Source: Squalus acanthias (lineage: Eukaryota). From it: a stretch of DNA of 64,000 nucleotides. The stretch spans positions 22,136,001 to 22,200,000 of the forward strand of contig CM059432.1 in NCBI GenBank assembly GCA_030390025.1. Direction: 5' to 3'. Positions 1,621 to 52,305 of the stretch are shown here, one piece after another. The notes beneath the pieces were generated by a model. That model saw nothing but the letters and a program-made list of their open reading frames with translations. It had not been told where the DNA came from and did no database searches. Position numbers and translations under genes: made by a program. The first letter of the stretch is position 1. Every line of letters starts with the position of its first letter.

Positions 1621-2298
1621 CAGACTACATTCACTTCTGCCTAAAGCTTCTTACTAAACACACTGACTATAGAAGTGGTTTGAAGTGGCTTTGTATTTAT
1701 GCAAAGCATGTGAGTTTCCTGTTTTAACAGCTAGAAAGAATGTAACAATTGCAGAAAATAATGACTTTCACATCTAAATATAGACACATGAAAAAAATAT
1801 ATAATAGTGTAGTCCAGATTCAATGGCTGTTTAGGTCAAATTCAGTAATTTTACCTCTTGTACCTAAGCATAAAAGTAAATACTCTTTTTTTCAATGTTT
1901 GGGTTATTAGTGTAGAATTGTGGCAGAAGATTTTGTGATTGATCACAAATGAATATTGTTGGTTAATAAAACCAAGCAAATTACCTATAATTTTATTTTG
2001 AGGGAATGGAACCATAGAATCATAGAATGAGACAGCACAGAAGGAGGCCACTCGGCCCATTGTGCCTGTGCCAGCTCTCTAAAAGGGCTATTATCTTAAA
2101 ATAAACCATTTTTTTCTACTTTCTCTCATGCCAATAGTACTTTGAGTCCTGCAAAGAATGTTAATAATACAATCTAGGACAGTTTCCTAGGACAATATAC
2201 ATAGATACATAGATACATAGAAGATAGGAGCAGGAGTAGGCCATCCGGCCCTTCGAGCCTGCTCCGCCATTTAATGAGATCATGGCTGATCCTCCAAT

Positions 2299-5166
2299 TC
2301 AGTATCCCGTCCCCGCCTTCTCTCCGTAACCCTTAACCCCTTTTGCCTGTAGAAATACATCTAATTCCCTCTTAAATATATTTAATGAGCTGGCGTACAC
2401 TGCCCTCTGTGGCAATGAGTTCCACAGGTTCACCACCCTCTGAGTGAAGAAATTCCACCTCATTTCTGTCCTAAATGGTTTAGCCCTTATCCTTAAATTA
2501 TGTCCTCTAGTTCTGTTCTCACCCGCCAAGGGAAACATTCCTTCTGCATCTAGTCTGTCTAGACCTGTCAGAATTTTATACACTTCTATGAGGTCCCCTC
2601 TCAATCTTCTAAACTCCAGTGTGTACATCCCTAAACTACATAGTCTCTCCTCATAGGTCAATCCCGCCATTCCTGGTATCAGCCTGGTGAATCGCCGCTG
2701 CACCCCCTCCATGGCAAGAACATCTTTCCTCAGATGAGGCGACCAAAACTGTACACAGTACTCGAGGTGTGGTCTCACCAGTGCCCTGTACAGCTGCAGC
2801 AAGGTATCCCTGTTCCTGTATTCCAACCCTTTTGCTATGAAGGCCAGCATACCGTTTGCCTTCTTGATCGCCTGTTGCACCTGCATGCTCGCCTTCAGTG
2901 ACTGGTGTACAAGAACACCCAGGTCTCTCTGTACTTCCCCCTCTCCCAATTTATTGCCATTTAAATAATAATTTGCCCTCCCGTTCCTGCACCCAAGGTG
3001 GATAACTTCGCACTTGTCCACATTATAGTGCATCTGCCATTTATCCGCCCAATCACCCAGTCTGTCCAAATCGCTCTGGAGCTTCCTGGTCTCCTCCTTT
3101 GAGCCCACCCCCCCTCCTAGTTTAGTGTCGTCTGCAAATTTGGAAATGCTGCATCCGACTCCCTGATCCAGGTCATTAATGTAAATTGTGAACAGCTGGG
3201 GACCCAGGACAGATCCCTGTGGTACCCCACTTGTTACTGCCTGCCATTCAGAAAATGAGCCGTTTATTCCAACTCTCTGTTTTCTATCTGACAGCCAGTT
3301 CTCTATCCACGTCAATACTTTCCCCTTTATCCCATGAGCTTCAATTTTCCCTGCTAATCTTTTATGTGGGACCTTATCGAAGGCCTTTTGGAAGTCCAGG
3401 TACACCACATCTACTGGCTCTCCCCCATCTATTTTACCAGTTACTCCCTCAAAAAATTCCAATAGATTAGTCAAGCACGATTTACCCTTTGTAAATCCAT
3501 GTTGACTCTGTCCTATCCTGTCCCCATTTGCTAAGTGCTCCGCTATTTCATCCTTAATGATGGACTCCAGCATTTTGCCCACAACTGATGTAAGGCTTAC
3601 AGGTCTGTAATTACCTGCTTTTTCCCTACCCCCCTTTTTGAATAGTGGGGTAACGTTAGCTACCCTCCAATCCATGGGCACTGTTCCCGAGTCTAATGAA
3701 TTCTGAAAAATCATACTTAGTGCATCCGCTATCTCTAGGGCCACCTCCTTCAGCACCCTAGGATGCATGTTATCAGGCCCTGGGGATTTGTCCGCCTTCA
3801 ATCCCTTTAGCTTCCTTAACACCATATCCTTAGAGATATTGACTTGCGTCAGTTCCTCCTTTGCAAATGTCCCTATTTTTCCCGATATCCCAGGGAGGTT
3901 TTTTGTGTCTTCCTTCGTAAAGACTGACCCAAAGTATGCATTTAGTTGGTCTGCCATTTCCTTATTTCCCGTTATATATTCCCCCGTATCTGACTGCAAT
4001 GGGCCAACTTTGGTTTTCACCAGTCTTTTCCTCTTGATATACTTATAAAAGCTTTTGGAGTTAGTTTTTATATTTTCCGCCAGCTTGCTTTCGTAAGCTA
4101 TTTTGCCCCTCTTGATTAAGCCCTTTGTCCTCCTTTGCTCTATCTTAAACTGTTCCCAATCTTCCGCTCTGGCGCTTTTTTTGGCTATTTTATACGCCCT
4201 ATCTTTGGATTTTATGCTGTCTCTAATTTCCCCTGTTATCCACGGTTGAGTCACCTTTTTAGATTTCCTTTTATGCCAGATTGGTATAAACAATTTTTGC
4301 AATTTTGTCATTCTATCTTTAAATGCTTGCCATTGTTTATCTACCTCCAGTCCTCCCAGGAACGTTGTCCAATCAGACCTACTCAGTTCCCGTCTAATGG
4401 CATCATAATTCCCCTTGTTTAAATTCAGGACCTTAGTATCTGAGTCAATTTCTTCGCTCTCCATTTCGAGTGAGAAATCGATCATGTTATGATCGCTCTG
4501 ACCCAAGGGTCCCCGTACAACAAGATTACTAATTAGTCCCTTCTCATTGCACAGTACCCAGTCCAATATAGCCTGTTCCCGAGTTGGTTCCTCGACATAT
4601 TGATCCAGATAACCATCCCTTAAACACTCAAGGAATTCCTCCTCCTCATTATTTTTACTGATTAGGCTATTCCAATCTATATGTAAGTTAAAGTCACCTA
4701 TGATGACAGCTGTGCTCTTATTGCACGCTTCTCTAATTTCCCTCGTGATGCCCTCCCCAACCTCTATTTTACTATTTGGAGGCCTATATACCACTCCTAT
4801 TAATGTTTTTCGCCCCTCGCTATTTCTTAGCTCCACCCATATAGATTCTGTATTAACTGAGTTAATATCCTTCCTTTCAATTGCATTTATCCCTTCTTTT
4901 ACCAGCAATGCTACCCCTCCTCCCTTTCTTTTTTGTCGATCCTTCCTAAATACTGAATACCCCTGTATGTTAAGCTCCCAGCCCTGCTCACCCTGCAACC
5001 ATGTTTCCGTAATCCCAATTAGATCATAATTATTAACCTCTATTTCCACAGCTAATTCATCTACCTTGTTCCTGATGCTTCTCGCATTAAGGTATAAAAC
5101 CCTCAGGCTTTTTTTATGCTCACATTTTTTATGAATTAGTTTGGCCCTTTGTTTTTTGTTCCTCAC
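2299..5166 (-). CDS. CR1 ORF2: APE endonuclease plus reverse transcriptase (frame open upstream to 5265; the track start is GTG)
   Basis: Endonuclease motifs LNARSI, GITETW, GDFN and SDH. RT motifs [21 protein letters not shown] and FADD. 955 aa without a stop. Confidence 0.95.
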   Translation of the reverse strand: MRNKKQRAKLIHKKCEHKKSLRVLYLNARSIRNKVDELAVEIEVNNYDLIGITETWLQGEQGWELNIQGYSVFRKDRQKRKGGGVALLVKEGINAIERKDINSVNTESIWVELRNSEGRKTLIGVVYRPPNSKIEVGEGITREIREACNKSTAVIIGDFNLHIDWNSLISKNNEEEEFLECLRDGYLDQYVEEPTREQAILDWVLCNEKGLISNLVVRGPLGQSDHNMIDFSLEMESEEIDSDTKVLNLNKGNYDAIRRELSRSDWTTFLGGLEVDKQWQAFKDRMTKLQKLFIPIWHKRKSKKVTQPWITGEIRDSIKSKDRAYKIAKKSARAEDWEQFKIEQRRTKGLIKRGKIAYESKLAENIKTNSKSFYKYIKRKRLVKTKVGPLQSDTGEYITGNKEMADQLNAYFGSVFTKEDTKNLPGISGKIGTFAKEELTQVNISKDMVLRKLKGLKADKSPGPDNMHPRVLKEVALEIADALSMIFQNSLDSGTVPMDWRVANVTPLFKKGGREKAGNYRPVSLTSVVGKMLESIIKDEIAEHLANGDRIGQSQHGFTKGKSCLTNLLEFFEGVTGKIDGGEPVDVVYLDFQKAFDKVPHKRLAGKIEAHGIKGKVLTWIENWLSDRKQRVGINGSFSEWQAVTSGVPQGSVLGPQLFTIYINDLDQGVGCSISKFADDTKLGGGVGSKEETRKLQSDLDRLGDWADKWQMHYNVDKCEVIHLGCRNGRANYYLNGNKLGEGEVQRDLGVLVHQSLKASMQVQQAIKKANGMLAFIAKGLEYRNRDTLLQLYRALVRPHLEYCVQFWSPHLRKDVLAMEGVQRRFTRLIPGMAGLTYEERLCSLGMYTLEFRRLRGDLIEVYKILTGLDRLDAEGMFPLAGENRTRGHNLRIRAKPFRTEMRWNFFTQRVVNLWNSLPQRAVYASSLNIFKRELDVFLQAKGVKGYGEKAGTGY

Positions 5167-5240
5167 CCTTTTACCATTTATTTCTGTCTGCCTTTCACTT
5201 TCCTCTATTTCACTACATAGGTTTCTAGCCCCCTGCCATA

Positions 5241-6188
5241 CTAGTTTAAATGCTCCCGAACTGCTTTATCAAAAATTACCCCGAGAACATCAGTTCCATC
5301 TTTGCACAGGTGTAGACCGTCCCTTTTGTATAGGTCACACCTACCACAAAACTGGTTCCAATGACTCAAAAATTTAAAACCCTCCCTCTTACACCACTGC
5401 TCAAGCCACGTATTTAGCCTAACTATCCTGTTCTCTGTACTCTTACTAGCACGTGGCACTGGTAGTAATCCAGAGATTACTACCTTCGAGGTCCTACTTT
5501 TTAGCTTGGCTCCTAACTCCCTAAATTCTACTTGTAGGACCTCTTCCCTTTTTTTAGCTACGTCGTTGGTACCAACATGTATCACGACAACTGGCTGTTC
5601 CCCCTCCCCCTCCAGAATGTTCTGCACCCGCGCCGAGACATCCTTGACCCTTGCACCAGGGAGGCAACATACCATCCTGGAGTCTCGGTCGCGACCACAG
5701 AAACCCCTATCTATTCCCCTTACAATCGAATCCCCTATTACTATAGCCCTGCCACTCTTTTTCCCTCCCTTCTTTGCAACAGAGCCAGTCATGGTGCCAT
5801 GAGCCTGGCTGCTGGTGCCTTCCCCCGATGAGTCATCCCCCCCGACAACAGCACCTAAGGCGGTGAACCTGTTGCTAAGGGAGACAACCCCAGGGGATTT
5901 CTGCACTACCTTCCTGCCCTTGCTCTGCCTTTTGGTCACCCATGTACTATCTACGCTGGCCTTAACCTGCGGTGTGACCAACTCACTAAATGTGTTATCC
6001 ACAACCCTCTCAGAATCGTGGATGCTCCAAAGTGAGTCCATCCGCAGCTCAAGGGCCGTCATGCGGTCCCACATGAGCTGCAGCTGGACACACTTCCCGC
6101 ACACATGGTTGTCAGGGACACAGGAAGCGTCCCTGATTTCCCACATGTTACAGGAGGAGCATGACACAGGTCCGAGCTCTACTGCCAT
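5241..6188 (-). CDS. CR1 ORF1: CxxC..CxxC zinc finger/leucine zipper plus SGNH/GDSL esterase
   Basis: CSSC and CGKC, then SGNH blocks IGDSIVR, HVGTND and DGLHL. 315 aa with ATG start. Confidence 0.93.
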   Translation of the reverse strand: MAVELGPVSCSSCNMWEIRDASCVPDNHVCGKCVQLQLMWDRMTALELRMDSLWSIHDSERVVDNTFSELVTPQVKASVDSTWVTKRQSKGRKVVQKSPGVVSLSNRFTALGAVVGGDDSSGEGTSSQAHGTMTGSVAKKGGKKSGRAIVIGDSIVRGIDRGFCGRDRDSRMVCCLPGARVKDVSARVQNILEGEGEQPVVVIHVGTNDVAKKREEVLQVEFRELGAKLKSRTSKVVISGLLPVPRASKSTENRIVRLNTWLEQWCKREGFKFLSHWNQFCGRCDLYKRDGLHLCKDGTDVLGVIFDKAVREHLN

Positions 6189-6646
6189 GACTTAACCCTT
6201 ATATTACTTTTTAATTTTCTAGTTTTAGTTTATTTATTGACTTTTGTTTTCCCGAAGCTTACTTAGACCAATGTAGACTGTACTCCTCTTATTCCTTTTT
6301 AAACTAACCAAATCCCACTAGTTTTAGTTTTACTTTCTAGGAAGGTTTGAGGAAAGTACTTACCAGTTAGTCTTACCTCCCTGGTCTTTCGCTGACTTCC
6401 CGGTCTTGTGTCCCCTTGGTCCTACGCCGACTTCCCGCTCCTCCCGGTTCCTGCCCTGCTGAAAAGAAACTGAGACCAAAAAATTTGTGACCTCTGTTTT
6501 TAGACTGCTAAAAGACTAGTAGGTTAGAGGAGGAGGGCGGGTGGGGGTTCCTACTCTGTAGGAACTCGGGTTTAAGCCACCACCCTCCTTAAATGCTGTT
6601 CACCTGGGTGCTTCCCACCTGGTCCGCTTCCGGTCTCGTCTCTCCG

Positions 6647-7109
6647 GACACTGGCCTCTGCAAAAAAAAAAGCCCGCGAAAGTGAGTTTAACTACTCACT
6701 GTGCTGCTGCTCTCTCCGCTCCCGACACTGGCCTCTGCAAAAAAAGCCCGCGAAAGTGAGTTTAAATACTCACTGTGCTGCTGCTCTCTCCGCTCCCGAC
6801 ACTGGCCTCTGCAAAAAAAGCCCGCGAAAGTGAGTTTAAATACTCACTGTGCTGCTGCTCTCTCCGCTCCCGACACTGGCCTCTGCAAAAAAAGCCCGCG
6901 AAAGTGAGTTTAAATACTCACTGTGCTGCTGCTCTCTCCGCTCCCGACACTGGCCTCTGCAAAAAAAAGCCCGCGAAAGTGAGTTTAAATACTCACTGTG
7001 CTGCTGCTCTCTCCGCTCCCGACACTGGCCTCTGCAAAAAAAAGCCCGCGAAAGTGAGTTTAACTACTCACTGTGCTGCTGCTCTCTCCGCTCCCGACAC
7101 TGGCCTCTC
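6647..7109 (-). repeat. Tandem 74-77 bp monomers (6 full plus 14 bp) forming the CR1 5' end
   Basis: Units start at 6647, 6724, 6798, 6872, 6946, 7021 and 7096. They differ only in A-run length and one base, and lie inside the TAT TSD. Confidence 0.95.
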
Positions 7110-7822
7110 TATGTGATGGAACCAACCAGGAAACAGGTTATTTTAGATCTTGTATTGTGTAATGAGACAGGGTTAATTAGCAATCTCATAGTAAAGGATC
7201 CTCTGGGGCAGAGTGATCATAATATGATAGAATTTCACATTAATTTTGAGAGTGACTTGCCTAAGTCCGAAACTAGAGTCTTAAACATAAATAAAGCCAA
7301 TTGCAGAGGTATGAGGGGTGAGTTGGCTAAGGTAGATTGGAAAAAATGATTAAAAAGTATGGCGTTAGATAAGCAGTGATTAGCATTTAAAGAAATATTT
7401 CTCAACAAAAATACATTCCATTGAGAAACAGAAACTCCACAGGAAAAGTGATCCAACCATAGCTAACTAAAGAAGTTCAGGATAGTATTAGATTGAAAGA
7501 AGAAGCTTATAATGTTGCGAAGAATAGTAGTAAGCTTGAGGATTTGGAGAGTTTCAGAAACCAGCAAAGGATGACCAAAAAATTGATAAAAAGGGAAAAA
7601 ATAGAATATGAGAGAAACCGAGCAAGAAATATAAAAGCAGATTATAAGAGCTTCTACAAATATGTAAAAAGGAAGAGAGTAGCAAAAGTAAATGTTGGTC
7701 CCTCAGAGGCTGAGACAGAAGAAACTATTATGGGGAATAAGGAATTGGCAGAAACGTTAAACAAATATTTTGTATCTGTCTTTGTAAAAGAAAACAAAAA
7801 GCATACCAAAAAGGGGAACCAA

Positions 7823-8715
7823 GGGGTAAAAATTCAGTTGGTTGCGCCTCCCGTTAGCGCCTTAAGAGGGCGCTAATGGGGCGCAAAGCCGCTAACGCTC
7901 GGGCGCAGCGATGTTTGCACCGCTCGGGAACTTAACTAGACATTGTACGGCGGCGCTAAACTTTACCGCTGCGACCACCTGCGCGCGCAGATTGTGACGT
8001 CATTCCATGGTGCAACGCCCTTGTGGCGCCCCGGAGCGGAAATTGAGTGGCGCCCCCTGCCTTACCGCCTGACGCTAGCAACGACAGGTTGAGGGGAGCG
8101 TTCTGCAGTCATGAAGGGAAAGGGGGAGCGCTATTTAAAGGTGACCGATTCCTGCCTTTTATTGTTGGTGCCATTTTTGAACTACGCATTCTGAGAGAGA
8201 GAGGGAGAGACTTCTGAAGAGATTCAACGTGGTGTGAAGGAGTTTTGGGTACTAAGCAGCACTTTGCAGGTTCATTTTGATTTGCCATTCCTTGTATCGA
8301 TTTAGCAGAGACTGTGGGGGCTGCACTCTGAGCTCTTTACCTTGTACTCTCCATTGTTCTTTCCAGCACATTTGATGTGCAAGTCTCTCCAGGCCGAGAT
8401 TCAAGGCTGCAATGAACAGGATGTGGATGGAAAGCAAGATTAACCATCCCCTTTAAGAACTGGCCCGTGCCATTGTGTGTGTGTTCCATTGCTGACTGAC
8501 ATTACATGAGCTTCGCCAGCGCTCTGAGTTAGCGCCTCACTCCTTGGCCTTTGCGCCTTAAGACAGGTGTGCAGTGCCTGATTTAGCGCTCCACTCACCT
8601 CCCGGGGTGGTAAAAGTGAAGTTTCCAGTCAGTGGCGATAATTAGCGCCAGGCGCTAATATTTGCGTCCAGACGATATTTGCGCCCCAAATGGGGCGCGA
8701 CCTAATTTTTCCCCC
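7823..8715. mobile_element. Non-autonomous Harbinger element, 893 bp
   Basis: Termini GGGGTAAAAATT and AATTTTTCCCCC, 3-bp TSD CAA. Both ends match the element at 9507-15129 in opposite orientation. Confidence 0.93.
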
Positions 8716-11171
8716 CAAGGATCTAATGAGGGTAAGGAACTTAACGTAATTAATATAAGTAGAGAAAAACTACGAGAGAAACTAATGGGACTAAAAGTCG
8801 ACAAATCCCCTGGACCTGACAGCCTACATCCTAGGATTCTAAAAGAGGTGGCTGAAGAGATAGTGGATGCATTGGTTTTGATCTTCCAAAATTCCCTAGA
8901 TTCTAGAACGGTCCCAGCGGATTGGAAGGTCGCAAATGTAACACTGCTATTCAAGAAAGGAGGGAGAGAGAAAACAGGGAACTACAGGTCAGTTAGCCTG
9001 ACATCAGTCGTCGGGAAAATGCTGGAATCCATTGTTAAGGAAATGGTATCAGGGCACTTAGAAAATCATAACATGATTAGGTAGAGTCAACATGGTTTTA
9101 TGAAAGGGAAATCGTGTTTGACAAATTTATTAGAGTTTTTTGAGGATGTAACTAGCATGGTAGATAAAGGGGAACCAGTGGATGTAGTATATTTGGATTT
9201 CCAAAAGGCATTCGATAAGGTGCCACATAAAAGGTTATTACACAAGATTAGGGCTCATGGGGTTGGGGTAATATAGTAGCATGGATAGAGGATTGGTTAA
9301 CGGACAGAAAACAGAGAGTCGGGATAAACGGATCTTTTTCAGGTTGGCAGGCTGTAACTAGTGGGGTGCCTGCAAGGATCAGTGTTGGGGCCTCAGCTAT
9401 TTACAATCTATATTAATGACCTAGATGAAGGGACCAAGTGTAATGTATCCAAGTTTGCTGATGATACAAAGCTAAGTGGGACAGTAAGCTGTGAGGAGAA
9501 CACAAAGGGGTAGAAATTAGGTCACGCCCCATTTGGGGCGCAAATATCGTCTGGACGCAAATATTAGCGCCTGGCGCTAATTATCGGCACTGACTGGAAA
9601 CTTCACTTTTACCGCCCCGGGAGGTGAGTGGAGCGCTAAAGCAGGCGCTGCACACCTGTCTTAAGGCGCAAAGGCCAAGGAGTGAGGCGCTAACTCAGCG
9701 CGCGAGCGCAGCGCAGCTGCTGCCAGTTAGCGAGGGAACACAGACACACTGGCGCCGGCCACTTCTTAAAGCGGGGGGGGCCAACTTGCTCCCCAGCCAC
9801 ACCCTGCTCATTGCAGCCTTGAATCTCGGCCTGGAGAGACCTGTGAATCCATTTTGCTGCCAAGCATGGAGAGGGTGAGAGAACGCACTCATCGCTTCAC
9901 CGAGCGGGCCTTGGATGCTCTGGTTGGCGCGGTGGAGTGCAGACGATGTATGCTCTTCCCTGAGAGTGGCAGGAGGCCTTTGCCACGCGAGTTCAGAAGA
10001 GTGTGGAGGGAGGTGGCTCAGAGCGTCTCCTCCAGGAGCATGGTGCCCAGGACCCATACTCAATGCCGCAAAAAGTTCAACGACCTCACTCGGGTCGTCA
10101 GGGTGAGTGGCTTTTTCTCAATACCTCTCCATCCCTCCATCTCAACCTCACTCTATGGCCAGAGGGTCTTAAAACCCCAATGCACAACACTCATCCAACA
10201 CCTATGGCCCTTTCATCAAACACACACACACATTCCACACTTTGCATACAGTAAGGGCTATTCACCTATGGGAGGCACATCAGGCAAGACCATGGCTGTA
10301 TATTTACTCAGATGCTGTCCTTTTTCTTACAGGCCAAGCTGGTGCATAATCGGAGACAGCAGCAACGGACAGGTGGAGGGCGGCCTCAGCTGCAACCCCT
10401 CAGCGATCTGGAGGAGTGCATCCACAGGATTGTGGCAAGCCGGGTGATCGGTCCCGTCGCCACTGGAGACGCCGACCCCGTTCTGGACAGCAATGGTAAG
10501 GTCATCACCTTTTTGTCCTCTGTCCTTCCACTTGTCCCTCACAACACCAGCCTTTGACACTTTCAATCCAACTTGCTAACTCGCTGCACTTATTCCTCCC
10601 TTACTGCCACCCTGTCCTCACGCTAAAGCCACTCTTGTACCTCCCTGCTTTCAGATGGTGATTCACCAGCTGAGGAGATGGTCCCTGAAGCTGCCACTGG
10701 GAGTGATGCTGCAGCTGAGGAGGAAGAGGAAGCCGGAGCATCAGTGCCACCCTCTCCCGAGGAAGCCCATGCCCACACTGGGAACACGCCTTCCCTGGAG
10801 GGGAGCAGGGGGGAAGGGTCTGATGAGGGTGAAGATCCAGGACCCAGCGGGCTGCAGCAACGCCATGGGGGGGGTAGGGAAGAACGGGGGCCTTCTCCCC
10901 AGAGGGAGAGTATGCCAGACACTCCTACTGCAATGGACGCAGAGGAGGAGTGGCTGATTGCAGAAATGAACAGCCAGGCGGTGGGCATGCACACTGAGCT
11001 CATGGGTGCAGTGGGAAGGGTGCCCGAATGCATTGAGTCACTGGCAAGGAGTGTGGAGCACTTCGCTGTAGCACAGGCGGATGCCACACTAACGCTTAGT
11101 GCTGCAATTCAGTCACTGGCTGCCGTGATCCCATCTCTGACTGCTCTCACCCCCAATATGCCAACATCTTC

Positions 11172-14617: not shown

Positions 14618-16429
14618 ATTCTCTTTGCAAGCAAAGTAATGAAGGACAGCAACTAAAGTAGCAGCAAAGTTAGGATCAATAGGCAAAACTACCTCACAAA
14701 GCGTTGAGTCAGTGTAGAAGTCTCTCTTTCTCTCTCTCCGAATCTCTCTCTCTCTCTCAGAACGAGTGGTGCAAAAATGTCGACCACAGAAAAAGACAGG
14801 AAGAGGCCCCCTTTAAATAGCGGCCCCCCCCAGCCCCACAGCGATTGATAGCGTTCCAGTCTTCCGGTCGTTGGAAGCGCCAGGCGGTAAGGCAGGGGGC
14901 GCCACTCAATTTCCGCTCCGGGGCACCACAAGGGCGTTGCACCATGGAATGACGTCACAATCTGCGCGCGCAGGTGGTCGCAGCGGTAAGTTTTAGCGCC
15001 GCCGCACAATGTCAAGTTAAGTTCCCGAGCGGCGCAAACATCGCTGCGCCCAGGCGTTAGCGGCTTTGCGACTCATTAGCGCCCTCTTAAGGCGCTAACG
15101 GGAGGCGCAACCAACTGAATTTTTACCCCAAAGAGTCTGCAAAGGGATATAGATAGACTAAGTGAGTGGGCAGTAAGGTGACAGATGGAGTATAATGTAG
15201 GGAAATGTGAGGTTATTCACTTTGGTAGGAAGAATAGAAAAACAGAATATTCTGTAAATGGTGAGAAACTTTCAAATGTTGGTGTTCAGAGAGATTTGGG
15301 TGTCCTTGTGCAAGAAACACAGAAAGCTAGCATGCAGGTACAGCAAGCAATAAGGAAGGCAAATAGCATGTTGGCCTTTATTGCAAGGGGGTTGTAGTAT
15401 AAGAGTAAGGAAGTCTTGCTACAATTATACAGGGCCTTGGTGAGACCACACCTGGAGTACTGTGCATAGTTTTGGTCTCCTTATCTAAGGAAGGATATAC
15501 TTGCCTTGGAGGCAGTGCAACAAAGGTTCACTAGATTGATTCCTGGGATGAGAGGGCTGTCCTATGATGAAAGATTGTGTAGATTGGACCTATACTCTCT
15601 GGAGTTTAGAAGAATGAGAGGTGATCTCATTGAAACATATAAGATTCTGAAGGGGATTGACAGGGTAGATGCTGAGAGGTTGTTTCCCCAGGCTGGAGTG
15701 TCTAGAACTAGGGGGCATAGTCTCAGGATAAGGGGTAGGCCATTTAAGACCGAGATGAGGAGGAATTTCTTCACTCAGAGGGTTGTGAATCTTTGGAATT
15801 CTCTGCCCCAGACGGTTGTGGATGCTGAGTCTTTGAGTATATGCAAGGCTGAGATAGATAGATTTTTGGACTCTAGGGGAATCAAGGGTTATGGAGATCA
15901 GGCGGAGAAAGTGGAGTTGAGGTCAATAATCAGCCATGATCTTATTGAATGGAGGAGCAGGCTCGAGGGGACGTATGGCCTACTCCTGCTCTTATTTCTT
16001 ATGTTCTTATATTCTTAATCTTGACAGATCAGTGCCCTTATAGGAAATGGTAAACTCCAGGCTTCAGTACAACAAACTGAATATGGATTCTGAAGTCTGG
16101 CTCCAAATAGTAATTCATTTTATTGCTTCATCTTCAAAGACAAGCTTCCAAGTAGATGCGTTTCAGTTACCCGAGGACTGTTGTTAGCTGCTTTGAGGAG
16201 ATCATTAATATTGTGTTATCCTTAGATGATTGCAGGAGGTTAACTACTATTGGCTCACATAAAGGGAAACTTTTTTTTTGATTCTGGGTTGCTGTGAGAG
16301 TGGAGCGCAACTGGGGACACACAACCTCCTAATGTCCCTCTCCGCTTTTTAATTTCCTCGTGACTGTGGGCCAGTGGGAAAGAGGCGCGAGTTTACTAGT
16401 GCCACAGATGGTCAATTTCGGGATGCAGG

Positions 16430-21078: not shown

Positions 21079-21795
21079 GACCTTGGAGTGCATGTCCACA
21101 GATCCCTGAAGGTAGCAGGCCAAGTAGATAAGGTGGTTAAGAAGGCATACGGAATGCTTGCCTTTATTAGCCGTGGCATAGAATACAAGAGCAGGGGGGT
21201 TATGCTTCAACTGTATAAAACACTAGTTAGGCCTCAGCTAGAGTACTGCGTGCAGTTCTGGTCACCACATTACAGGAAAGATGTGATTGCACTTGAGAGG
21301 GTACAGAGGAGATTTACAAGGATGTTGCTGGGAGTAGAGAATCTTAGCTATGAGGAAAGACTGATAGGCTGGGTCTGTTTTCCTTGGAACAGAGGAGGCT
21401 GAGGGGAGACTTTATTGAGGTGTATAAAATTATGAGGGGCATAGATAAAGTGGATAGAAAGGACCTATTTCCCTTAGCAGAGGGGTCAAAAACCAGGGGG
21501 CACAGATTTAAAGTAATTGGGGGAAGGTTTAGAGGGAATTTGAGGGGAAATTTCTTCACCCAGAGGATTGTGGGGGTCTGGAACTCACTGCCTGAAAGGG
21601 TGGTAGAGGAAGGAACCCTAACCACATTTAAAAAGTACTTGGATGTGCACTTGGGATGCTGTAACCTGCAGGGCTACGGACCAAGAGCTGGGAAGTGGGA
21701 TTAGGCTGGATAGCTCTTTGTTGGCCGGCGCGGACACGATGGGCCGAAATGGCCTCCTTCCGTGCTGTAACTTTCTATGATTCTATGATTCTATG
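21079..21795 (+). mobile_element. CR1 3' fragment inserted into a reversed CR1 tail (about 21016-22020)
   Basis: LVRPQLEYCVQFWSP peptide, (TTCTATGA)n tail and ATGG duplicated at the junctions. Confidence 0.85.
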
Positions 21796-38540: not shown

Positions 38541-38979
38541 CTTACCACCCTATCAGCTAGTATAAAGATAGTTATGACCATGGAAAGAGCATTAATGTGT
38601 CTAGTCAGACTATTAATTAGCCTGTGAATCCTTCCACTATTCCCCCAAAGGGAACAGCAAGACAACCATAAGAAGAAGATAGTAAAACAGCAGCAGAGTT
38701 GGAGCCAGAATAGTTTGGATTTTCTTCTCTGTTTTTCAAACAATCGGACAATCCAGATGGACTGCACTGGTCCTATACATTTCAATGCTCCTCTTTCCCA
38801 AATTCCACCCAGCCCACCTGAAGAATACAATTCATTCACTGCGCCTTTTATAAATTGATGTCATAGAAAGTTTGGGGGATGATTCTGCTTGAATATGCAA
38901 AAGTGGGCATAAAGGGCAGAATACATCTGTGCTCCAGACAAACGACAGTTATTTTTATGAGGTTTCTCCTGATAAGGCT

Positions 38980-39463
38980 GTCAAGGCCTTGGAGAGGTTG
39001 CAGTGGAGGTTTATTCGAATAATACCAGAGACAAAGAACTTCTGTTATGTGGAGAGACTAGATAAACTGAGATTGTTCTCTTTAGAGCAGAGACGGTGAA
39101 GGAGAGATTTAATGGAGGTGCTCAAAGTTAGGAAGGGGTAGAGTAAATAAGGAGAAATTGTTTCCACTGGCAGGATGACCGATAACCGGAGGACACAGAT
39201 TTAAGATAATCAGCAAAAGAACCAGAGGAGGAAATGAGGAGAATTGTTTTTATGCAGTGAGTTGTTATGATCTGGAATGCACACCTGAAAGGGTGGTGGA
39301 AACGGATTCAATAATAACTTTCAAAAGGGAATTGGATAAATACTTGGAAAGGAATTAACTGTAGAACTATAGGGAAAGAACAAGGGAGTGGGACTAATTG
39401 GCTAGCTCCTTCAAAGAGTCACAATGGGCCGAATGGCCTCCTTCTGCGCTGTAAGGTTCTATG
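38980..39463 (+). mobile_element. Old CR1 3' fragment
   Basis: Degraded LERLQ..TGGHRFKI peptide and GGGCCGAATGGCCT hairpin tail. Confidence 0.75.
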
Positions 39464-41124
39464 ATACTTCAGCAGAAGGACTGTAGAAACCCGAGAGAAA
39501 CAGTGTAAATGGGTTTCAGCGATTCTTCCGCCAAAGTCACAGCAGGCAATCGGGAGAATCCCAGAGGAAATTCAACCTCAAAGTCTTTACTCACAGCATT
39601 TCTCACAGCAGGTCAAGAAGAAAGGGTTAAACTAGGATTGGCGCAACGAGTCTTGACTTCAACACAGTGAGAATGCAGGAAGCAGGAGCCACATTTGGAA
39701 CTCGACACGAACAAGAGAGGGAATTTCACAACAGCAATGATCATAAAAGGATCAGTAAAACAGAGAACCTGCAAAGTGCAAAATGTGCCAATTGCAAACC
39801 AGAGTTTGTTTAGCTCTTCGCTCAAGATAAGCACTCACTGCTGGAAGGAAAAAAGCTATGCAACAAGAGAGGCCTGATCAGATAGCTGTCAGCTGCTAAT
39901 TTTCTGTTGCTCCAAGTAGGAGGAAGGAATTGCTTAAACTTCTGAGGCTATCAGAGGCTGGTAGCGGCTCATGAAAACATTGCATGTCTCATTGAATAAA
40001 TGTGTAAGTAGCAGCAAGGTGGTCGAATTATTTCACTAACATGCTATGGTAAAACAGTGGGAGTATTCTATAACCAAGCTAGTAACACATTCAGAGCAAG
40101 CCGGTTACCCTGTTATAATCAGTCAATAGTTGATTGTTGAGTTTGGGTGCTCTGAATGACAATATTTCTTTATTTAAAATGCAAAGGTCAGCATAATCAT
40201 TGGGTTAGTGGATGCTATGAAATTACTCAGCTCAAGGCAAAGGTTTCTTTGAGGCATGGATTAATTCTCCGGATTTCCTGGTGGAAAACTGTTATCTTCT
40301 AGACCCAGATTTGCAATGGGTTTAAGAGATGGAAGTACTTTACAGTGATGGCTCACTGGCAGGTTCTTGTGTGATATTATTCTTATTATTTCACCTAACC
40401 AAATGTGAGTAACAAAGTTCCGAACTATCCGTCTATCCTACTCCATGAATTGCCTGCATTCTCAATGTATTCAAGAGGTTTTTCTTGGGTAAGTATTTGC
40501 GTTAAGTTCATTACCAGCGTGGGTAATTGTTTCCAGGGAAGCAGAATGGCACCTAATACATCTTACCAGATGGAATTGAACCACGTGACCTTTGTTGAGT
40601 TAGCTGTGTTTCCGCTAGCAGTAAAACATAGAGCCATGCAAACCTTGTACCATTGCCAAGCTATTCTTCAGAGAGAGAGAAGAAAAAACATTTGCAGAGT
40701 GAAAAGTGATAGTTGGTTAATCAAACAGCGTAATATTTAAGCTACGGGCAGTACAGAATTTTTATATACCTGGAACAAACTAATTAGACTGGGGGGCAGT
40801 AAATACACAGCAGTAGTGGTAGGTTGTTTCAATTGTTTGGATTTAAATTTGCACCATCACTGTGGGAATATCTCCTGTGCTCTGCACCCGACCGCAGTTC
40901 AAACTGATTTGCTTTTGCTGTGGAACTTTTGTGTAAAGTTAAGCTTCGGAGAGATAGTTCACCTCCCCATTTTGCTATAGATCTGGTGACTGATGTGGCA
41001 GGATTTATGGGGGGAAGCCTGTGATGAGTAACCCAATGGGAAGGCTCAGCTGGCAGATAGGCCCAATTTGTTACGCGGAAACCATACGCACCTGCTGGTA
41101 TCGATCCTTGGATAGAAATCCCTC

Positions 41125-42715
41125 ATAAGAACATAAGAATTAGGAGCAGGAGTAGGCCATATGGCCCCTCGAGCCTGCTCCGCCATTCAATAAGATCATG
41201 GCTGATCTTCGACCTCAACTCCACTTTCCTGCCTTATCCCCATATCCCTTAATTCCTCTGAAGTCCAAAAATCTATCTATCTCAGCCTTGAATATAATGC
41301 GATTGAGCATCCACAGCACTTTGGGGCAGATAATTCCAAAGAGTCACAACCCTCTGAATGAAGAAATTTCTCCTCATCTCAGTCTTAAAAGGCCGTCCCC
41401 TATCCTGAGATTATGCCCCCTAGTTCTAGACTCTCCAGCCAGGGGAAACAATCTCTCAGCATCCCCCTCAGAATCCTATAGGTTTCAATGAGATAACCTC
41501 TCATTCTTCTAAACTCCAGAGAGTATCTACTCAATCTATCCTCAGAGGCTAACCTGACATGAATCTTGTCATTCATGTGGAAATTACTTATGAAATAATA
41601 CTGGGTGGCCTGCTGGTGGCGCTGTCCAGGGAGAGTATAAATACTCGGGCATGGGCCCAGCTTGCTCAGGACATTCTTTAACAGGAACTAGTGAAGGACA
41701 CAACCAGACCTCCATGTTGAAAAACAGTTGATTAAAGCTTTGTTTAATGCTTAGACCAAGTGCCTAGTAGTTTTCTTACGTCACAACCCTCTCATCCCAG
41801 GGAATAATCTAGTGAACCTTCATTGCACCACCTCTAAGGCAAGTATGTCCTTCCTTAAATAAGGAGACCTGGGGAGGCGATTGGAGGCCTCATAGGAGTG
41901 TCTCCAATCAGGGGAGGGTGGGTATGGTAGGGACCCTGGATCCAGCAGGTCGGTATAAAGCCACTTACCTCCTGGATGCAGCTGTCCTCGCCTCTGTTTA
42001 ACTGCCGGGTTTCACGAATTGTGTGAAACCCGTCCACAGGCAGTTAAAAACAAAATGGAGGGGAAAATAGAGGCTTCCAGCCTCATTACAATATTTAAAT
42101 TGAGGTAGCGCCCCTGGGAGCGGGTTGGCTGCCCGCCCCCATCCCGCCTCCAGGAAAACCGGAAGTGGGCGGGTTGGAGGCATTATCAAGTCGGGATTCA
42201 CATTTTTAACAATTTAACTGCCCCCACACCCCAAACCCACCCATTTTTTGATGGGAAAATTCTGACCTCTGTGTTTCCTGTATGAGGACACCCAGATCTC
42301 TCTGAACACCAACATTTAATAGTTTTTCAGCATTTAAAAAATATTCTGTTTTTCTATTCTACCTACCAAAGTGAATAACCTCACATTTCTCCACATTATA
42401 CTCCATCTGCTACCTTATCGCCCACTCACTTTATATCCCTTTGCAGGCTCTTTGTGTCCTCATATCTTACTTTTCTACATAGCTTTGTATTGTCAGCAAA
42501 CTTGGGTACATTGCACTCGGTCCCTTCATCTAAGTCATTAATATAGATTGTGAATAGCTGAGGCCCAAGCACTGATCCTTGCGGCACCCCACAATTTACA
42601 GCCTGCCAACCGGAAAATGACCCATTTATCCCTACTCTCCGTTTTCTGTCTGTTAACCAATCCTCTATCCGTACTAATACCTTACCCCCAACCCCATGTG
42701 CCCTTATCTTGCCCA
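41125..42715 (-). mobile_element. Fragmented CR1 3' part interrupted by a MITE
   Basis: [10 protein letters not shown] and FADN peptide at 42426-42715, and a reversed CR1 tail at 41125. Confidence 0.8.
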
Positions 42716-43049
42716 TCATTAGAAATGACAAGTTTTCCACTCCCTCCCCCCTCCCCCCCACGCAGTACTCACTAATCTCTATAAATATCGGAAAGCATAA
42801 GGAGACCACAATGTTTAAGTCTCCAAGTGACTAGCTGAATCAGATATCACCATATAAGGATGAAAAAGACTGAAGGGCTAATGGGTTTGGTGGCTAGATT
42901 TTTGGATACTAAGGGAATCAAGGGACATGGAGATCGGGCAGGAAAGTGGAGTTGAGGTCGAAGATCAGCCATGATCTTATTGAATGGTGGAGCAGGCTCG
43001 AGGGGGCCATATGGCCTACTCCAGCTCCTAACTCTTATATTCTTATGTT

Positions 43050-46200: not shown

Positions 46201-47143
46201 CCCCATTGAGAGGAGGGTTACACGCACAAAGCTGACTGAGTTACATGTCTAAATCTAATTTTAGGTAACGTCAGCTGCAACACAGTGAATTTGACATCAT
46301 TTCAGCTCTTCAGGTGGGGATGCAGAGGGGTTAGGACAACAATGCTTGCAGCAGCTCCTCACAGTGGGACCCAGAAGAGGTTCTGAAAAACACAGCTGCT
46401 GCTAAATGACCATGCAGCTCTGCAGACGTGGTACATCGCAAAGCAGCGAAGAATATACAATAAGGGCAATTATCCAAGTTCCTACTGATGATGGGGACGC
46501 ATGGCGCACTGTCAGCGAATAGCCCATCCACTGATTTCAAGGGACAGAAAATCTCGGCCAACGGCACCTGAAACGTTTTGATATGTGCTGGAAACTGACA
46601 AGAATCCCCACCACTGGTGCATACCTAGAAAACTAGAGAGAAAATTACCTGTTACATACAGGATTTGAAAATGAACTTAAATTGAATCTGAGGAGTCAAT
46701 CAATGGGAATTCCTTCTGCTGCTAGGCTTCTTGTTTTTTTTCCAACCAGTGATTTTTACCTCTGGTATGGTTTATTTATTGTGGTATTGCACTTCAGCCA
46801 TTGTAATAGACTTCCAATAGGTGCGGACCGAGGAGGAGCAGCGGCGGCAGAGGATAAAAGCGAGCCCTGGGAGCAGGTAGGCCCACCAATCTCAGAGCGG
46901 GAGACAGAAGTAAAAAGTAATCAAAGTGTGACGTCACCAGAAAGCAGGTAAGTGATTGGTTGGTGAGTATTTCTCTCTTTCTCCTTTTTCCATACTTAAA
47001 TTCTGTGGTTTATAGTTTCTAGAGTCTCTGTGGTGTAGCGGGGACTGCTGTTAAACAAGGGCCCTTGAGTATATCATTTAATTGAAGTAAAATTGGTGGG
47101 ATTCATTTAATTTAATTTTAATTAATTAATTAAAGGGTAAGTC

Positions 47144-48094
47144 ATGGCAGGAGAGCTCCACCCTGTGATATGCTCCTCCTGCTATATGTGGGAAATCAGG
47201 GATGCTTCCTGTGTCCCTGACGACCATGTGTGTGGGAAGTGTATCCAGCTGCAGCTACTGATGGACCGCATTGCGGCGCTGGAGCTGCGGATGGATGCCT
47301 ATTGGAGCATTCGCGATGCTGAGGACGTCGTGGATAGCACATTTAGAGAGTTGGTCACACCGCAGGTAAAGGGTGTACAGGCAGGAAGTGAATGGGTGAC
47401 CACCAGGCAGAGTAAGAGGTGCAGGCAGGTAGTGCAGGGGTCCCCTGTTGCCATCCCCCTCTCAAACAGATATACCACTTTGGATGCTGTTGGGGGGGAT
47501 GACTTATCAGGGGAAGGCAGCAGCAGCCAACTTCCTGGCACCATGGGTGGCTCTGCTGTACAGGCAGGGAGGAAAAAGTGTGGAAGAGCTATAGTGATAG
47601 GGGATTCAATTGTAAGGGGAATAGATAGGTGTTTCTGCGGCCACCAACGAGACTCCAGGATGGTGTGTTGCCTCCCTGGTGCAAGGGTCAAGGACGTCTC
47701 AGAGCGGCTACAGAACATTCTGGAGGGGGAGGGCAAACAGCCAGTTGTCGTGGTGCACATAGGCATCAACGATATAGGTAAAAAATGGGATGAGGTCCTA
47801 AAAGCAGAATATAGGGAGTTAGGAGGTAAATGAAAAAATAGGACCTCAAAGGTAGTAATCTCAGGATTGCTACCAGTGCCACGTGCTAGTCAGAGTAGAA
47901 ATAGAAGGATATTTCAAATGAATAGGTTGCTAGAGGAATGGTGCAAGGGGGAGGGATTCAAATTCCTTGGACATTGGAACCGGTTCTGGGGGAGGTGGGA
48001 CCAGTACAAACGGGACGGTCTGCACCTGGGCAGGGCCGGGACCGATGTCCTAGGGGGAGTGTTTGCTAGTGCTGTTGGGGAGGGTTTAAACTAA
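47144..48094 (+). pseudogene. CR1 ORF1 (zinc finger plus esterase) with a premature TGA at 47831
   Basis: Colinear with 5241-6188; IGDSIVR and DGLHL motifs. Confidence 0.9.
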
Positions 48095-51075
48095 AGTGGC
48101 AGGGGTTTGGGAACCTGAGCAGGGAGACAGAGGAAAGGGAAACAAGGATAAAAGCAAAAGACAGGAAGGAGAAAAACAAAAGTAGAAGGCAAAGAACTCA
48201 ACGGTTTAAATCAAACATGGTCACAGTAAATAATAATTCATATAGCTCTGAGAGCGTTAAAAAAACAAGCCTGAAGGCTTTGTGTCTTAATGCAAGGAGC
48301 ATTCGGAACAAGGTGGATGAATTAGCTGCGCAAATAGAGGTAAATGAATGCGATTTGATTGGGATTACAGAAACATGGCTCCAGGGTGGCCAAGGCTGGG
48401 AACTCAACATCCAGGGGTATTCAATATTTAGGAAAGATAGGCAAAAAAGAAAGGGAGGTTGGGTAGCATTGCTGGTTAAAGAGGGGATTAACACAATTGA
48501 AAGGAAGGATATTAGCTCTGATGATGCGGAATCTGTATGGGTTAACTGAGAAATAACAAGGGGCAGAAAACATTAGTGGGAGTGGTATATAGACCTCCAA
48601 ACAGTAATATGGAGGTTGGGGATGGCATTAAAAGGGAAATTAGAGAAGCATGCAGTAAGGCCACAGTAGTCATCATGGGTGACTTTAATTTACATATAAA
48701 TTGGGCTAACCAAATTAGTAAAAATATTGTGGAGGAGGAATTCCTAGAATGTTTACGGGATGGTTTTCTGGAACAATATGTCGAGGAACCAACCAGAGAT
48801 CAGGCCATCTTAGACTGGGTATTATGTAACGAGAAAGGATTAATTAGCAATCTTGTTGTACGAGGCCCCTTGGGTCAGAGTGACCATAATATGATAGAAT
48901 TCTTCATTAGGATGGAGAGTGAAGTAGTTGAATCAGAGACTAGGGTCCTGAATTTAAATAAAGGAAACTACGATGGTATGAGGCGCGAATTGGGTAGGAT
49001 TGATTGGGGAATGTCACTCGAAGGGTTGACGATGGATAGGCAATGGCAAACATTCAAAGACTGCATGGATGAACTACAGAATTTGTTCATCCCAGTGTGG
49101 CATAAGAATAAAACAAAAAGGGTGACTCAACCGTGGCTAACAAGGGAAATTAGGGATAGCATAAGATCCAAGGAGAGGGCATATAAATTGGCCAGAAAAA
49201 GCGGTAACCCTGAGGATTGGGAGCAGTTTAGGATTCAACAAAGGAGGACAAAGGGATTAATTAAGAAGGGGAAAATAGAATATGAAAGTAAGCTTGCTGG
49301 GAACATAAAAACTGACTGTAAGAGTTTTTATAGATATGTGAAGAGAAAAAGATTAGTGAAATCAAGTGTAAGTCCCTTGCAGTCAGAAGCGGGGGAAGTT
49401 ATAATGGGGAACAAAGAAATGGCAGACCAATTAAATGCATATTTTGGTTCTGTCTTCACAAAGGAGGACACAAATAACCTCCCAGAGATGTTGGAGAACA
49501 TACGGTCTGATGAAAGGGAGGAACTGAAAGAAATCAGTATTTGCAGGGAAATGGTGTTAGGGAAATTGACGGGATTGAAGGCCGATAAATCCCCAGGGCC
49601 TGATAATCTACATCCTAGGGTACTTAAGGAAGTGGCCGTAGAAATAGTAGATGCATTGCTGATCATCTTCCAACATTCGATGGAATCTGGAACTGTACCC
49701 ATGGATTGGACGGTAGGTAATGTTACACTACTATTCAAAAAGGGTGGTAGAGAGAAAGCGGGAAATTACAGACCGGTAAGCCTGACATCGGTAGTGGGGA
49801 AAATGCTAGAGTCCATTATAAAGGATGTAATAGCTGAGCACTTGAAAAACAGTGACAGGACCGGACAAAGTCAACATGGATTTACAAAAGGTAAATCGTG
49901 CTTGACTAATCTACTGGAATTTTTTGAGGATGTAACTGGTAAAATAGATAAGGGAGAACCAGTGGATGTGGTGTATTTGGACTTTCAAAAGGCTTTCGAT
50001 AAGGTCCCGCATAAGAGATTAGCGTGTAAAGTTAAGGCACATGGGATTGGGGGCAAGGTATTGACTTGGATAGAGAACTGGTTGGCGGACAGAAAGCAAA
50101 GAGTAGGAATTAATGGGTCTTTTTCCGAGTGGCAAGCAGTGACTAGTGGGGTACCGCAGGGATCGGTCCTTGGACCCCAGCTATTCACAATATACATTAA
50201 TGATCTAGATAAGGGAACTAAATGTAATATCTCCAAGTTTGCAGATGACACAAAGCTGGGTGGGAGTGTGTGCTGCGAGGAGGATACCGAGAAACTCCAG
50301 GATGATTGGACAGGTTGGGTGAGTGGGCAGAAGCATGGCAGATGCAATATAACGTGAATAAATGCGAAGTTATCCACTTTGCTGTCAAAAACAGAAAGGC
50401 AGACTATTATCTGAATGGCAATAGATTGGGAGAAGAGGAAGTGCAACGAGACCTGGGTGTCCTTGTGCACCAGTCGCTGAAGGTAAGCATGCAGGTGCAG
50501 CAGGCGGTGAAGAAGGCAAATGGTATGTTGGCCTTCATAGCAAAAGGGTTTGAGTATAGGAACAGGGATGTCCTGCTGCAGTTGTACAGGGCCTTGGTGA
50601 GACCACACCTTGAGTATTGTGTGCAGTTTTGGTCGCCTTATCTGAGGAAGTATCTTCTTGCCATGGAGGGAGTTCAGCGAAGATTCACAAGGCTGATACC
50701 TGGAATGGCAGGAATGACATATGAGGAGAGATTGGGTCGATTGGGCTTATACTCGCTGGAGTATAGAAGAATGAGAGGGGATCTCATCAAAACATATAAA
50801 ATTCTGACAGGTCTGGACAAACTAGATGCAGGAAGAATGTTCCCGATGGTCGGAGAGTCCAGAACCAGGGGTCATAATCTAACGATAGGGGTAAGCCATT
50901 TAGGACCGAAATGAGGAGGAATTTCTTCACCCAGAGAGTGGTGAACCTGTGGCATTCTCTACTACAGAATGTAGTTGAGGCCAAGTCATTAAATATATTC
51001 AAGAATGAGTTAGATATATTTCTTAAAGCTAAAGGTATCAAGGGATATGGGGAGAAGGCAGGTACAGGGTACTGA
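48085..51075 (+). pseudogene. CR1 ORF2 (endonuclease-RT) with a stop at 48547 and frameshifts near 50305 and 50885
   Basis: ORF pieces at 48217, 48576 and 50306 are colinear with the intact ORF2. Confidence 0.92.
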
Positions 51076-51527: not shown

Positions 51528-52305
51528 TTACATAGGATTACATCGGATATATGGCACAGAAACAGGCCATTCGGCCCAACCAGTCCATGCCGTCATTTAT
51601 GCTCCACACGAGTCTCCTCCCGTCTTTCCTCATCTAACTCTATCAGTATAACCCTCTATTCCCTTTTCCCTCATATGCTTATCTAGCCTCCCCTTAAATG
51701 CATCTATACTATTCGCTTCAACCACTCCCTGTGGTAGCGACTTCCACATTCTCTCCACTCTTTGGGTAAAGAAGTTTCTTCTGAATTCCCTATTGGCTTT
51801 CTTGGTGACTATCTTAAATTGATGGCCTCTAATTATGCTCTTCCCCACAAGTGGAATCCACTCTATCAAAATTTTTCATAATTTAAAGACGCCTATTAGG
51901 TCACCCCTCAGCCTTCTTTTTTCAAGAGAAAAGAGACCCAGCCTGTTCATCCTTTCCTGATATGTATACCCTCGCATTTCTGGTAGCATCCTTGTAAATC
52001 TTCACTGCACCCTCTCCAGTACCTCTATATCCTTTTTATAATATGGCAACCAGAACTGTATGCAGTACTCTAAGTGTGGTCTAACCAAGGTTCGATACAG
52101 GTTTAGCATAACTTCCCTACTTTTCAATTTTATCCCTCTAGAAATAAACCCTAGTGCTTGGTTTGCTTTTTTTAATGGCCTTGCTAACCTGTGCCGCAAC
52201 TTTTAGTGATTTGTGTATTTGTACTCCGAGATCCCTTTTTTCCTCTACCCCACCTAGACTCGCACCCTCCAAGTGATTAGTGACCTCCCTATTCTTCCTA
52301 CCTAA
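51528..52305 (-). mobile_element. CR1 3' fragment of another subfamily
   Basis: LVRPHLEYCIQFW and NFFTQRV peptides, with a reversed tail at 51528. Confidence 0.85.

Follow-up and report, generated by a model that had tools for sequence, protein, structure and literature searches.

A probable -1 ribosomal frameshift signal at the ORF1/ORF2 junction of a CR1 LINE from Squalus acanthias, conserved among diverged CR1 lineages

A 64,000-nucleotide stretch of the Squalus acanthias genome (assembly GCA_030390025.1, contig CM059432.1, positions 22,136,001 to 22,200,000 of the forward strand; this whole stretch is called the window here) carries on its minus strand a full-length CR1 long interspersed nuclear element (LINE) whose first open reading frame (ORF1) ends on the heptamer U_UUA_AAC. 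This heptamer is probably a programmed -1 ribosomal frameshift site, at which some ribosomes would pass from ORF1 into the second frame, ORF2. The heptamer, its phase and the stop codon that touches it are retained in all of the diverged CR1 lineages that could be read, seven in the same genome and one on an unrelated public contig, and comparison of their junctions shows selection at the nucleotide level on all three features. The initial annotation of the window had proposed a frameshift of the gag-pol type at this place, and the comparison of diverged copies lends that interpretation good support.

Results

The element spans 2197..6500 of the window (minus strand), from octamer repeats at its 3' end to an approximate 5' boundary, and both of its ORFs are intact. 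ORF1 (5241..6188, minus strand) runs from ATG 6188-6186 to TAG 5243-5241 and encodes 315 amino acids plus a stop; its product carries an N-terminal CxxC...CxxC motif and, at ~5295-5741, an esterase domain of the SGNH/GDSL (OSK-like) kind (PF13472, E 2e-11; PF17182, E 9e-9). The ORF2 frame (2299..5265, minus strand; 988 codons from stop to stop, with its stop at 2301-2299) lies at -1 relative to ORF1. Within it the Pfam scan found an apurinic-type endonuclease at ~4489-5088 (Exo_endo_phos, PF03372/PF14529) and a reverse transcriptase (RT) at ~2998-3630 (RVT_1, PF00078), and it found no protease in the element. The 3' untranslated region (2197..2298) ends in (CTATGTAT)x3 at 2197-2220. LINEs of the CR1 group carry short octamer repeats of this kind at their 3' ends instead of poly(A). 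The available part of a 2026 survey of the CR1 group reports an esterase-type ORF1 for the CR1 and L2 lineages (PMC13343379). By its domains, its ORF1 type and its 3' repeats, the window element is a CR1-type LINE.

ORF1 of the window copy ends GAG CAT TTA AAC TAG, which places T_TTA_AAC (5250-5244, minus strand) in the X_XXY_YYZ phase of ORF1 and directly against the stop codon (5241..5243); this stop is TAG or TAA across all lineages. The -1 frame across the junction reads FKLVWQGARNLCSEIEES... and is open from 5265, just past a TGA TAA, to 2301-2299. In the 65 codons past the heptamer it is free of stops, of which the ORF1 frame contains 7 and the +1 frame 10. It opens five codons upstream of the heptamer and overlaps ORF1 by 22 nt, the ORF1 stop not counted, and after a shift ORF2 would be read from CUA at 5244-5242. 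A G-rich tract, GGCAGGGGG (5229..5237, minus strand), has its G-run beginning 11 nt past the heptamer and is a candidate stimulator. The first Met of the ORF2 frame is codon 261 (residue 228 if the count starts at GTG 5166) and lies 255 codons past the heptamer, at the end of the Exo_endo_phos match (residues 60-259). An ATG stands 2 nt past the ORF1 stop; it belongs to the +1 frame, where MAGG is followed at once by a stop. A shift would give a fusion of 315 + 981 = 1296 amino acids.

On all of these points the re-reading of the minus strand bears out the initial annotation, which had described the in-phase heptamer after CAT, the stop-free -1 frame into the endonuclease-RT ORF, its closure by TGA TAA five codons upstream with a 22-nt overlap, the lack of an AUG until residue 228, the out-of-frame AUG just past the stop and a fusion of roughly 1296 amino acids. 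The geometry also differs from that of two other ways of expressing ORF2. In readthrough of the murine leukaemia virus gag-pol type the second ORF lies in the frame of the first, but here it lies at -1. Termination-reinitiation of the SART1 (UAAUG) or calicivirus type would place an ORF2-frame start codon at or beside the stop, but the nearby ATG is in the +1 frame.

In a single element, such a heptamer goes only a little beyond chance. ORF1 has 3 in-phase heptamers of this type among its 317 codons and ORF2 has 5 among 989, and TTTAAACTAR was observed 3 times in the window against 0.29 expected, two of the three being CR1 junctions. A single in-phase heptamer is not very surprising, and the case rests on conservation across copies.

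Conservation of the junction

Lineages A-G were gathered from the same genome with the DNA of a diverged copy, the DNA of a 5'-truncated fragment in the window, and a Pfam OSK search after which 20 small stretches were read. Lineage H is a vertebrate-like public contig of 1460 nt (L098), taken from a metagenome scan with an alignment of the ORF1 protein (ORF1p) that gave 80 loci. Diverged subfamilies in the genome are 82% and 74-78% identical to the window junction, and the identity of ORF1p to the window copy drops to ~50% in lineage E and 34% in lineage H. The motif, counted as TTTAAAC or TTTAAAT followed by TAR, was present in 12/12 copies of lineage A, 2/2 of B, 4/4 of C, 20/30 of D (an old, decayed lineage), 9/9 of E, 4/5 of F, 37/45 of G and 1/1 of H.

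All readable ORF1s end ...x-Leu-Asn-stop on the heptamer in the X_XXY_YYZ phase with ORF2 at -1, and the ORF2 frame opens 3-5 codons upstream of the heptamer across lineages. In lineage E the -1 frame is unbroken from the heptamer into a conserved downstream stretch in 5 of the 9 copies, and a variable poly-G shifts it in the other 4. L098 reads CAG AAG CAT TTA AAC TAG, followed by a purine-rich stretch with a six-G run; its endonuclease is at -1, its -1 frame is closed five codons upstream, and no Met stands ahead of the endonuclease motif. Read in this way, L098 shows the same junction architecture in a distantly related element.

The lineages have no conserved AUG in the ORF2 frame. The first Met past the heptamer comes at +255 codons in lineage A, +19 in B, +44 in C and +23 in D (one copy read); E and H have no Met before the endonuclease, and three lineages in all are without one there. 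The +1-frame ATG near the stop is missing in 5 of the 8 lineage representatives (D, F, G, H and most E copies). The initial annotation had proposed an alignment of ORF1/ORF2 junctions, and in the DNA of these eight lineages the heptamer and its phase hold and no AUG is conserved. It had also named a start of ORF2 at GTG 5166 as an alternative, and this GTG is kept only in lineages A and B.

The last 600 nt of ORF1 and 300 nt downstream were aligned for five lineage representatives with pairwise nucleotide identities of 0.49-0.84. Invariant columns number 221 of 1070, and the sole invariant run of at least 6 nt is TTTAAACTA, which covers the heptamer and the next two bases, the first two of the stop codon. 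Three G columns at the place of the G-rich tract are invariant in the same alignment, and read directly in lineages A-H the G-run begins 9-11 nt past the heptamer. Between lineages A and B the linker past the heptamer is, by eye, fast-evolving, and its amino-acid conservation is uninformative.

A codon alignment of the five lineages (158 codons) served as a control for synonymous sites. The same degenerate amino acid is kept in 46 columns, and a single codon is kept in 6 of these 46. Among the 11 conserved Leu columns, only the one at the heptamer has one codon (TTA) in all five lineages. The codon before it is CAT, GAT, GCT, GCT and CAT, so that the amino acid varies and the third-base T is constant; over the whole alignment 25 of 158 third positions are invariant. 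Frozen synonymous sites at the junction are the pattern expected if U_UUA_AAC, and not the peptide, is constrained.

ORF1 protein ends in other vertebrates

A word-based search with ORF1p returned 119 relatives, annotated only as uncharacterised proteins. The named ones come from sharks, rays and skates, with weaker matches in cyprinids, characins and one alligator. Among the 38 comparable relatives with an identity of at least 40%, 36 end in Leu-Asn (LN), and below 40% identity 5 of 42 do, the alligator included; a teleost group ends otherwise, for example in ...SLRAET. A profile search over 1.84 billion cluster representatives gave 10,471 matches at E <=0.001, of which the best 150 were inspected. 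The profile was made from LN-ending sequences and may slightly favour LN matches; 110 of these best 150 reach the profile end, and of the 110, 59 end in LN, 10 in GN (9 QGN, 1 SGN) and 3 in KN. Members of LN clusters are named as Zootoca, Salvator, Macrochelys, Chelydra, Chrysemys and Hirundo (a lizard, a tegu, three turtles and a swallow).

The residue before Leu-Asn (position -3) was then surveyed in 275 retrieved proteins, which gave 85 distinct LN tails that are not phylogenetically independent. Twelve different amino acids occur at this position, and only 1 of the 85 tails has one without an NNU codon (Glu, Gln, Lys, Met or Trp), compared with 37/85 at position -4 and 27/85 at position -5. 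This NNU rule fits a U kept at the first position of the heptamer from sharks to birds.

The clusters with other ends comprise QGN (9), SGN (1) and LSKN or QGKN (3) (proteins P0167-P0254, P0195, P0253). If we infer codons from these ends, QGN and SKN would fit G_GGA_AAC and A_AAA_AAC; G_GGA_AAC is the heptamer of PEG10. QGN-type ORF1 DNA has no close relative in the genome of the window, the best match being 43% identical.

Two of the database entries were filed under other names. P0009, on a 4159-nt contig, is filed as a Pseudomonas aeruginosa SGNH/GDSL hydrolase; it is 58% identical to the CR1 ORF1p and ends ...REGLN, and its source is probably fish DNA that entered a bacterial assembly. P0024, which bears the name '40S ribosomal protein S24 isoform X2', is a CR1 ORF1p.

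These protein ends bear on the explanation that ORF2 expression plays no part in the conservation, Leu-Asn being a functional C-terminus of ORF1p whose nucleotides were simply inherited by descent. Leu-Asn is invariant at the protein level, as this explanation expects. It leaves unexplained that the ten other conserved Leu columns all switched codon among the same five lineages, that the chemically free residue at -3 is limited to amino acids with NNU codons, and that the first two bases of the stop codon are invariant too. We consider it very unlikely.

RNA reads over the element

Two RNA-seq runs labelled as the same species were aligned over the whole element at a likeness of at least 97% and a reporting threshold of 3%, and the summed depth in the junction bin was ~85 and ~120. 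No joint was found anywhere on the element in the two runs, and indels were listed only at 5548, 6208 and 6448, with none at 5229-5270 (66 further single-letter differences exist beyond those listed). Because there is no joint and no listed indel at the junction, splicing or polymerase slippage there is unsupported. The initial annotation had also named a spliced RNA as a possible source of ORF2, and neither a spliced nor an indel-corrected RNA appears in these runs.

The same reads weigh against a correction of the frame in RNA by splicing, editing or polymerase slippage at a homopolymer. The hypervariable poly-G that lies just 5' of the heptamer in lineage G, or just 3' of it in lineage E, could slip in transcription or reverse transcription, and to that extent such a correction is conceivable. 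The window family has no long homopolymer at its junction, and with the RNA-seq result this makes the explanation extremely unlikely.

Proposed mechanism

What favours a frameshift is the in-phase heptamer, a -1 ORF that is open across the site with no conserved start, and conservation beyond the coding need. Most ribosomes would stop at UAG and release the 315-amino-acid zinc-motif/esterase protein, and a minority would slip back by one base and continue into ORF2. The slip could be made by tRNA-Leu and tRNA-Asn moving together from UUA AAC to UUU AAA, or by tRNA-Asn alone with the stop codon waiting in the A site. Either route would yield ...EHLN-LVWQG... and with it the 1296-amino-acid ORF1-endonuclease-RT fusion, which would bring the enzyme into the ORF1p-RNA particle. 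We infer both the slip itself and any role of the conserved G-run from the compared sequences.

Points against the frameshift, and reinitiation

Several observations weigh against this reading, and the first of them concern RNA structure. A heptamer alone usually gives very little shifting, and no stem-loop or pseudoknot was found 5-9 nt downstream, only the conserved G-run. The 120 nt past the heptamer fold no better than shuffled sequences in the seven lineages folded (z from -0.83 to +0.97) with ViennaRNA, which models neither pseudoknots nor G-quadruplexes, so that a stimulator of an unusual kind may be present. The folding gives a weak, interrupted hairpin of 6 bp for lineages A and C alone, and E, F, G and H lack the bases that would pair in it; Rfam gave no match downstream of the junction at E up to 5. 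The initial annotation had seen no convincing pseudoknot, and for the seven lineages the predictions contain no stable structure of any kind. In the window family a G-quadruplex is unlikely because the G-tracts, by eye, give no four G-runs within reach. The conserved G-run, 9-11 nt past the heptamer, begins about where frameshift stimulators usually do. The efficiency of the shift is probably low, because no structure is predicted; low shifting would suit a LINE, which needs very little ORF2 protein (ORF2p), and this is an argument rather than evidence.

The kind of evidence available sets further points against it. The evidence from amniotes consists of proteins only, since scans of genome contigs and viral contigs yielded no amniote CR1 junction DNA. 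The RNA reads fall on both strands and differ from the window copy at fixed sites, so that they represent CR1 family members in RNA and show no LINE-promoter transcript of the window copy. Longer fused proteins in the protein database number only 5 and are mostly chimeric gene models; the gene model P0268 contains an internal gap.

Lineage G seemed to offer a natural fusion, and this candidate was withdrawn. In seven copies found through Pfam-OSK matches, ORF2 lies in the frame of ORF1, and the G-run is 9, 12 or 15 long. The fusion is a selection artefact, because the copies had been picked for long open frames. A frame-blind sample was taken as the 39 further best DNA matches to a lineage G junction stretch, of which 30 were scorable; they comprise 11 fused copies, 11 with the phase of a frameshift and 8 with the remaining phase. 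The poly-G of this lineage, ~9-17 nt directly 5' of the heptamer, is hypervariable in length among copies that are 94-97% identical (L085, L088, L092-L096, L178-L216). The ray proteins P0025 and P0120 show the same variation in a Gly-run.

The last of these points is that missing AUGs alone prove little, because ORF2 of L1 is thought to be made without frameshifting in an AUG-independent way, as stated in the available part of a review of recoding (Atkins 2016). Termination-reinitiation or non-AUG initiation could work in CR1 too: ribosomes would restart near the stop in the -1 frame and make a separate ORF2p, with TTTAAACTAR and the G-run as the restart signal. The unconventional initiation held for L1 gives this some footing, as does the UAAUG stop-start coupling that SART1 uses according to the available part of another paper (PMC3708506). 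The absence of a predicted frameshift-stimulating structure agrees with it, and a stop that always touches the CR1 motif suits an event linked to termination. It leaves unexplained why there is a perfect in-phase slippery heptamer with frozen synonymous sites and a -1 phase, and why the U before UUA is constant while the amino acid there varies. The other ORF1p ends, QGN and SKN, also fit X_XXA_AAC, the sole AUG close to the stop belongs to the +1 frame and is often missing, and neither an AUG nor a GTG is conserved in the ORF2 frame. Reinitiation therefore seems rather unlikely, and the -1 frameshift at U_UUA_AAC is the reading that we prefer.

Readthrough-like arrangements in distant LINEs

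The remaining loci of the metagenome scan are mostly distant LINEs of an invertebrate type with an esterase ORF1, and many of the records resemble insect-gut samples. A downstream endonuclease match is present in 38 loci; it lies in the same frame as ORF1 in 25, at -1 in 7 and at +1 in 6. In 19 of the 25 same-frame loci no stop other than that of ORF1 intervenes, and 17 of the 25 have UGA with a following C as the ORF1 stop, often as TGA CTA. Examples from the set L100-L176 are L100 (stop at 2002-2004) and L107 (stop at 2020-2022). This looks like a readthrough version of the Gag-Pol arrangement, and as an independent hint it suggests that the fusion may be the functional form in this group.

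A broader proposal can be put forward tentatively. LINEs of the CR1 group with an esterase ORF1 might, like retroviruses, depend on recoding and produce the endonuclease-RT solely as part of an ORF1-ORF2 fusion. In jawed vertebrates, sharks through birds, the route would be a -1 shift at X_XXA_AAC (U_UUA_AAC in most cases, G_GGA_AAC and A_AAA_AAC for the QGN and SKN ends), and in some invertebrate relatives it would be UGA-C readthrough. The stimulator would be the G-run at the mRNA entry, possibly through contact with protein or rRNA, and not a folded RNA. We regard this as possible and well short of probable.

Other CR1 sequences in the window

The family of the window element is young, because ten junction copies in the genome, the window copy included, are 99-100% identical (genome search, 3.7 Gb). 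Among the 121 matches listed from the same genome, an open frame of exactly 316 amino acids over the esterase domain, the length of the window ORF1 frame, recurs at many places, which suggests that the family is large and young and has kept ORF1 intact. In addition, 88-95% of sampled 31-letter words of window 4900-5600 are present in runs under at least six coded organism labels, so that near-identical copies of the family extend beyond one label.

A second full-length CR1, of another subfamily, lies at 47141-51072 on the plus strand. Its ORF1p is 71% identical to that of the first, and it is broken, with a stop within ORF1 and frame breaks in ORF2. Its junction, read at 48085..48094 (plus strand), is TTTAAACTAA. 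Truncated at their 5' ends, ORF2 fragments of several CR1 subfamilies lie on both strands at 7032-9507, 15101-15904, 21079-21692 and 38974-42719, with further ones at 51636-52308, 57479-57706 and 61807-62424, and the window is densely populated with CR1. A tandem array with a 74-bp unit (6.2 copies, 98% match) lies at 6642-7108 on the plus strand, beside the 5' end of the intact CR1.

Discussion

The CR1 junction resembles several known recoding sites and is identical to none of them. The coronavirus ORF1a/1b site is U_UUA_AAC and that of equine arteritis virus is G_UUA_AAC, and both depend on a pseudoknot 5-7 nt downstream; the gag-pol site of Rous sarcoma virus is A_AAU_UUA followed by UAG. 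With the coronavirus and arterivirus ORF1a/1b junctions, CR1 has in common an identical heptamer and phase and a polymerase that would be a C-terminal extension of the upstream product, but it has no predicted structure and its 0-frame stop touches the heptamer. With Rous sarcoma virus it has in common the stop directly past the heptamer, but the heptamer is different.

The proposed fusion is like the Gag-Pol of retroviruses and long terminal repeat (LTR) elements, in which, according to the available part of the recoding review, a structural or RNA-binding protein is fused to RT in a minority of products (Atkins 2016). Retroviruses cut this fusion with their own protease, whereas CR1 is a non-LTR element and none was seen in its Pfam scan. 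PEG10 and the PNMA-type genes, in the same part of that review, are likewise -1 frameshift sites of retroelement origin in vertebrate genomes (Atkins 2016), but they are LTR-derived, single-copy host genes and have a pseudoknot.

Among non-LTR elements, a -1 frameshift for ORF2 is stated, in the portion of the source available, for TRE5-A and TRE3-A of Dictyostelium. These belong to a different clade and host from CR1, and the comparison is by description only. SART1 and human L1 also have a bicistronic LINE RNA with ORF2 close to or overlapping ORF1, but their mechanisms give a separate ORF2p and involve no slippery heptamer, and in CR1 the nearby AUG is out of frame and unconserved. The accessible parts of two papers describe the translation of LINE ORF2 as 'not clear' in 2013 (PMC3708506) and that of L1 ORF2 as 'unknown and novel' in 2016 (Atkins 2016), and in its accessible part the 2016 review names only HeT-A, TART and L1 among non-LTR elements (Atkins 2016).

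In full-text literature searches no paper turned up that describes a frameshift site in CR1; older CR1 ORF papers and Repbase entries may mention the overlap. The words frameshift, overlap, slippery, reinitiation and 'stop codon' are absent from the available text of the 2026 survey of the CR1 group (PMC13343379). What is likely to be new here is a probable Gag-Pol-type -1 frameshift signal in a vertebrate LINE that has no recognisable RNA stimulator.

How ORF2 is translated from a bicistronic LINE RNA is a long-standing question, and the CR1 heptamer gives a concrete hypothesis that can be tested at the bench. If the frameshift is real, it would add a large class of genomic -1 sites in vertebrates, apparently without a classical RNA structure, and if the broader proposal that these LINEs express ORF2 only by recoding is also true, there would be hundreds to thousands of functional frameshift sites in vertebrate genomes. 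Frameshifting and readthrough would then be alternative routes to a fusion in non-LTR elements, mirroring the retroviruses. A Gag-Pol-like fusion would also tether the RT to its own RNA particle, and this would be a simple physical basis for cis-preference.

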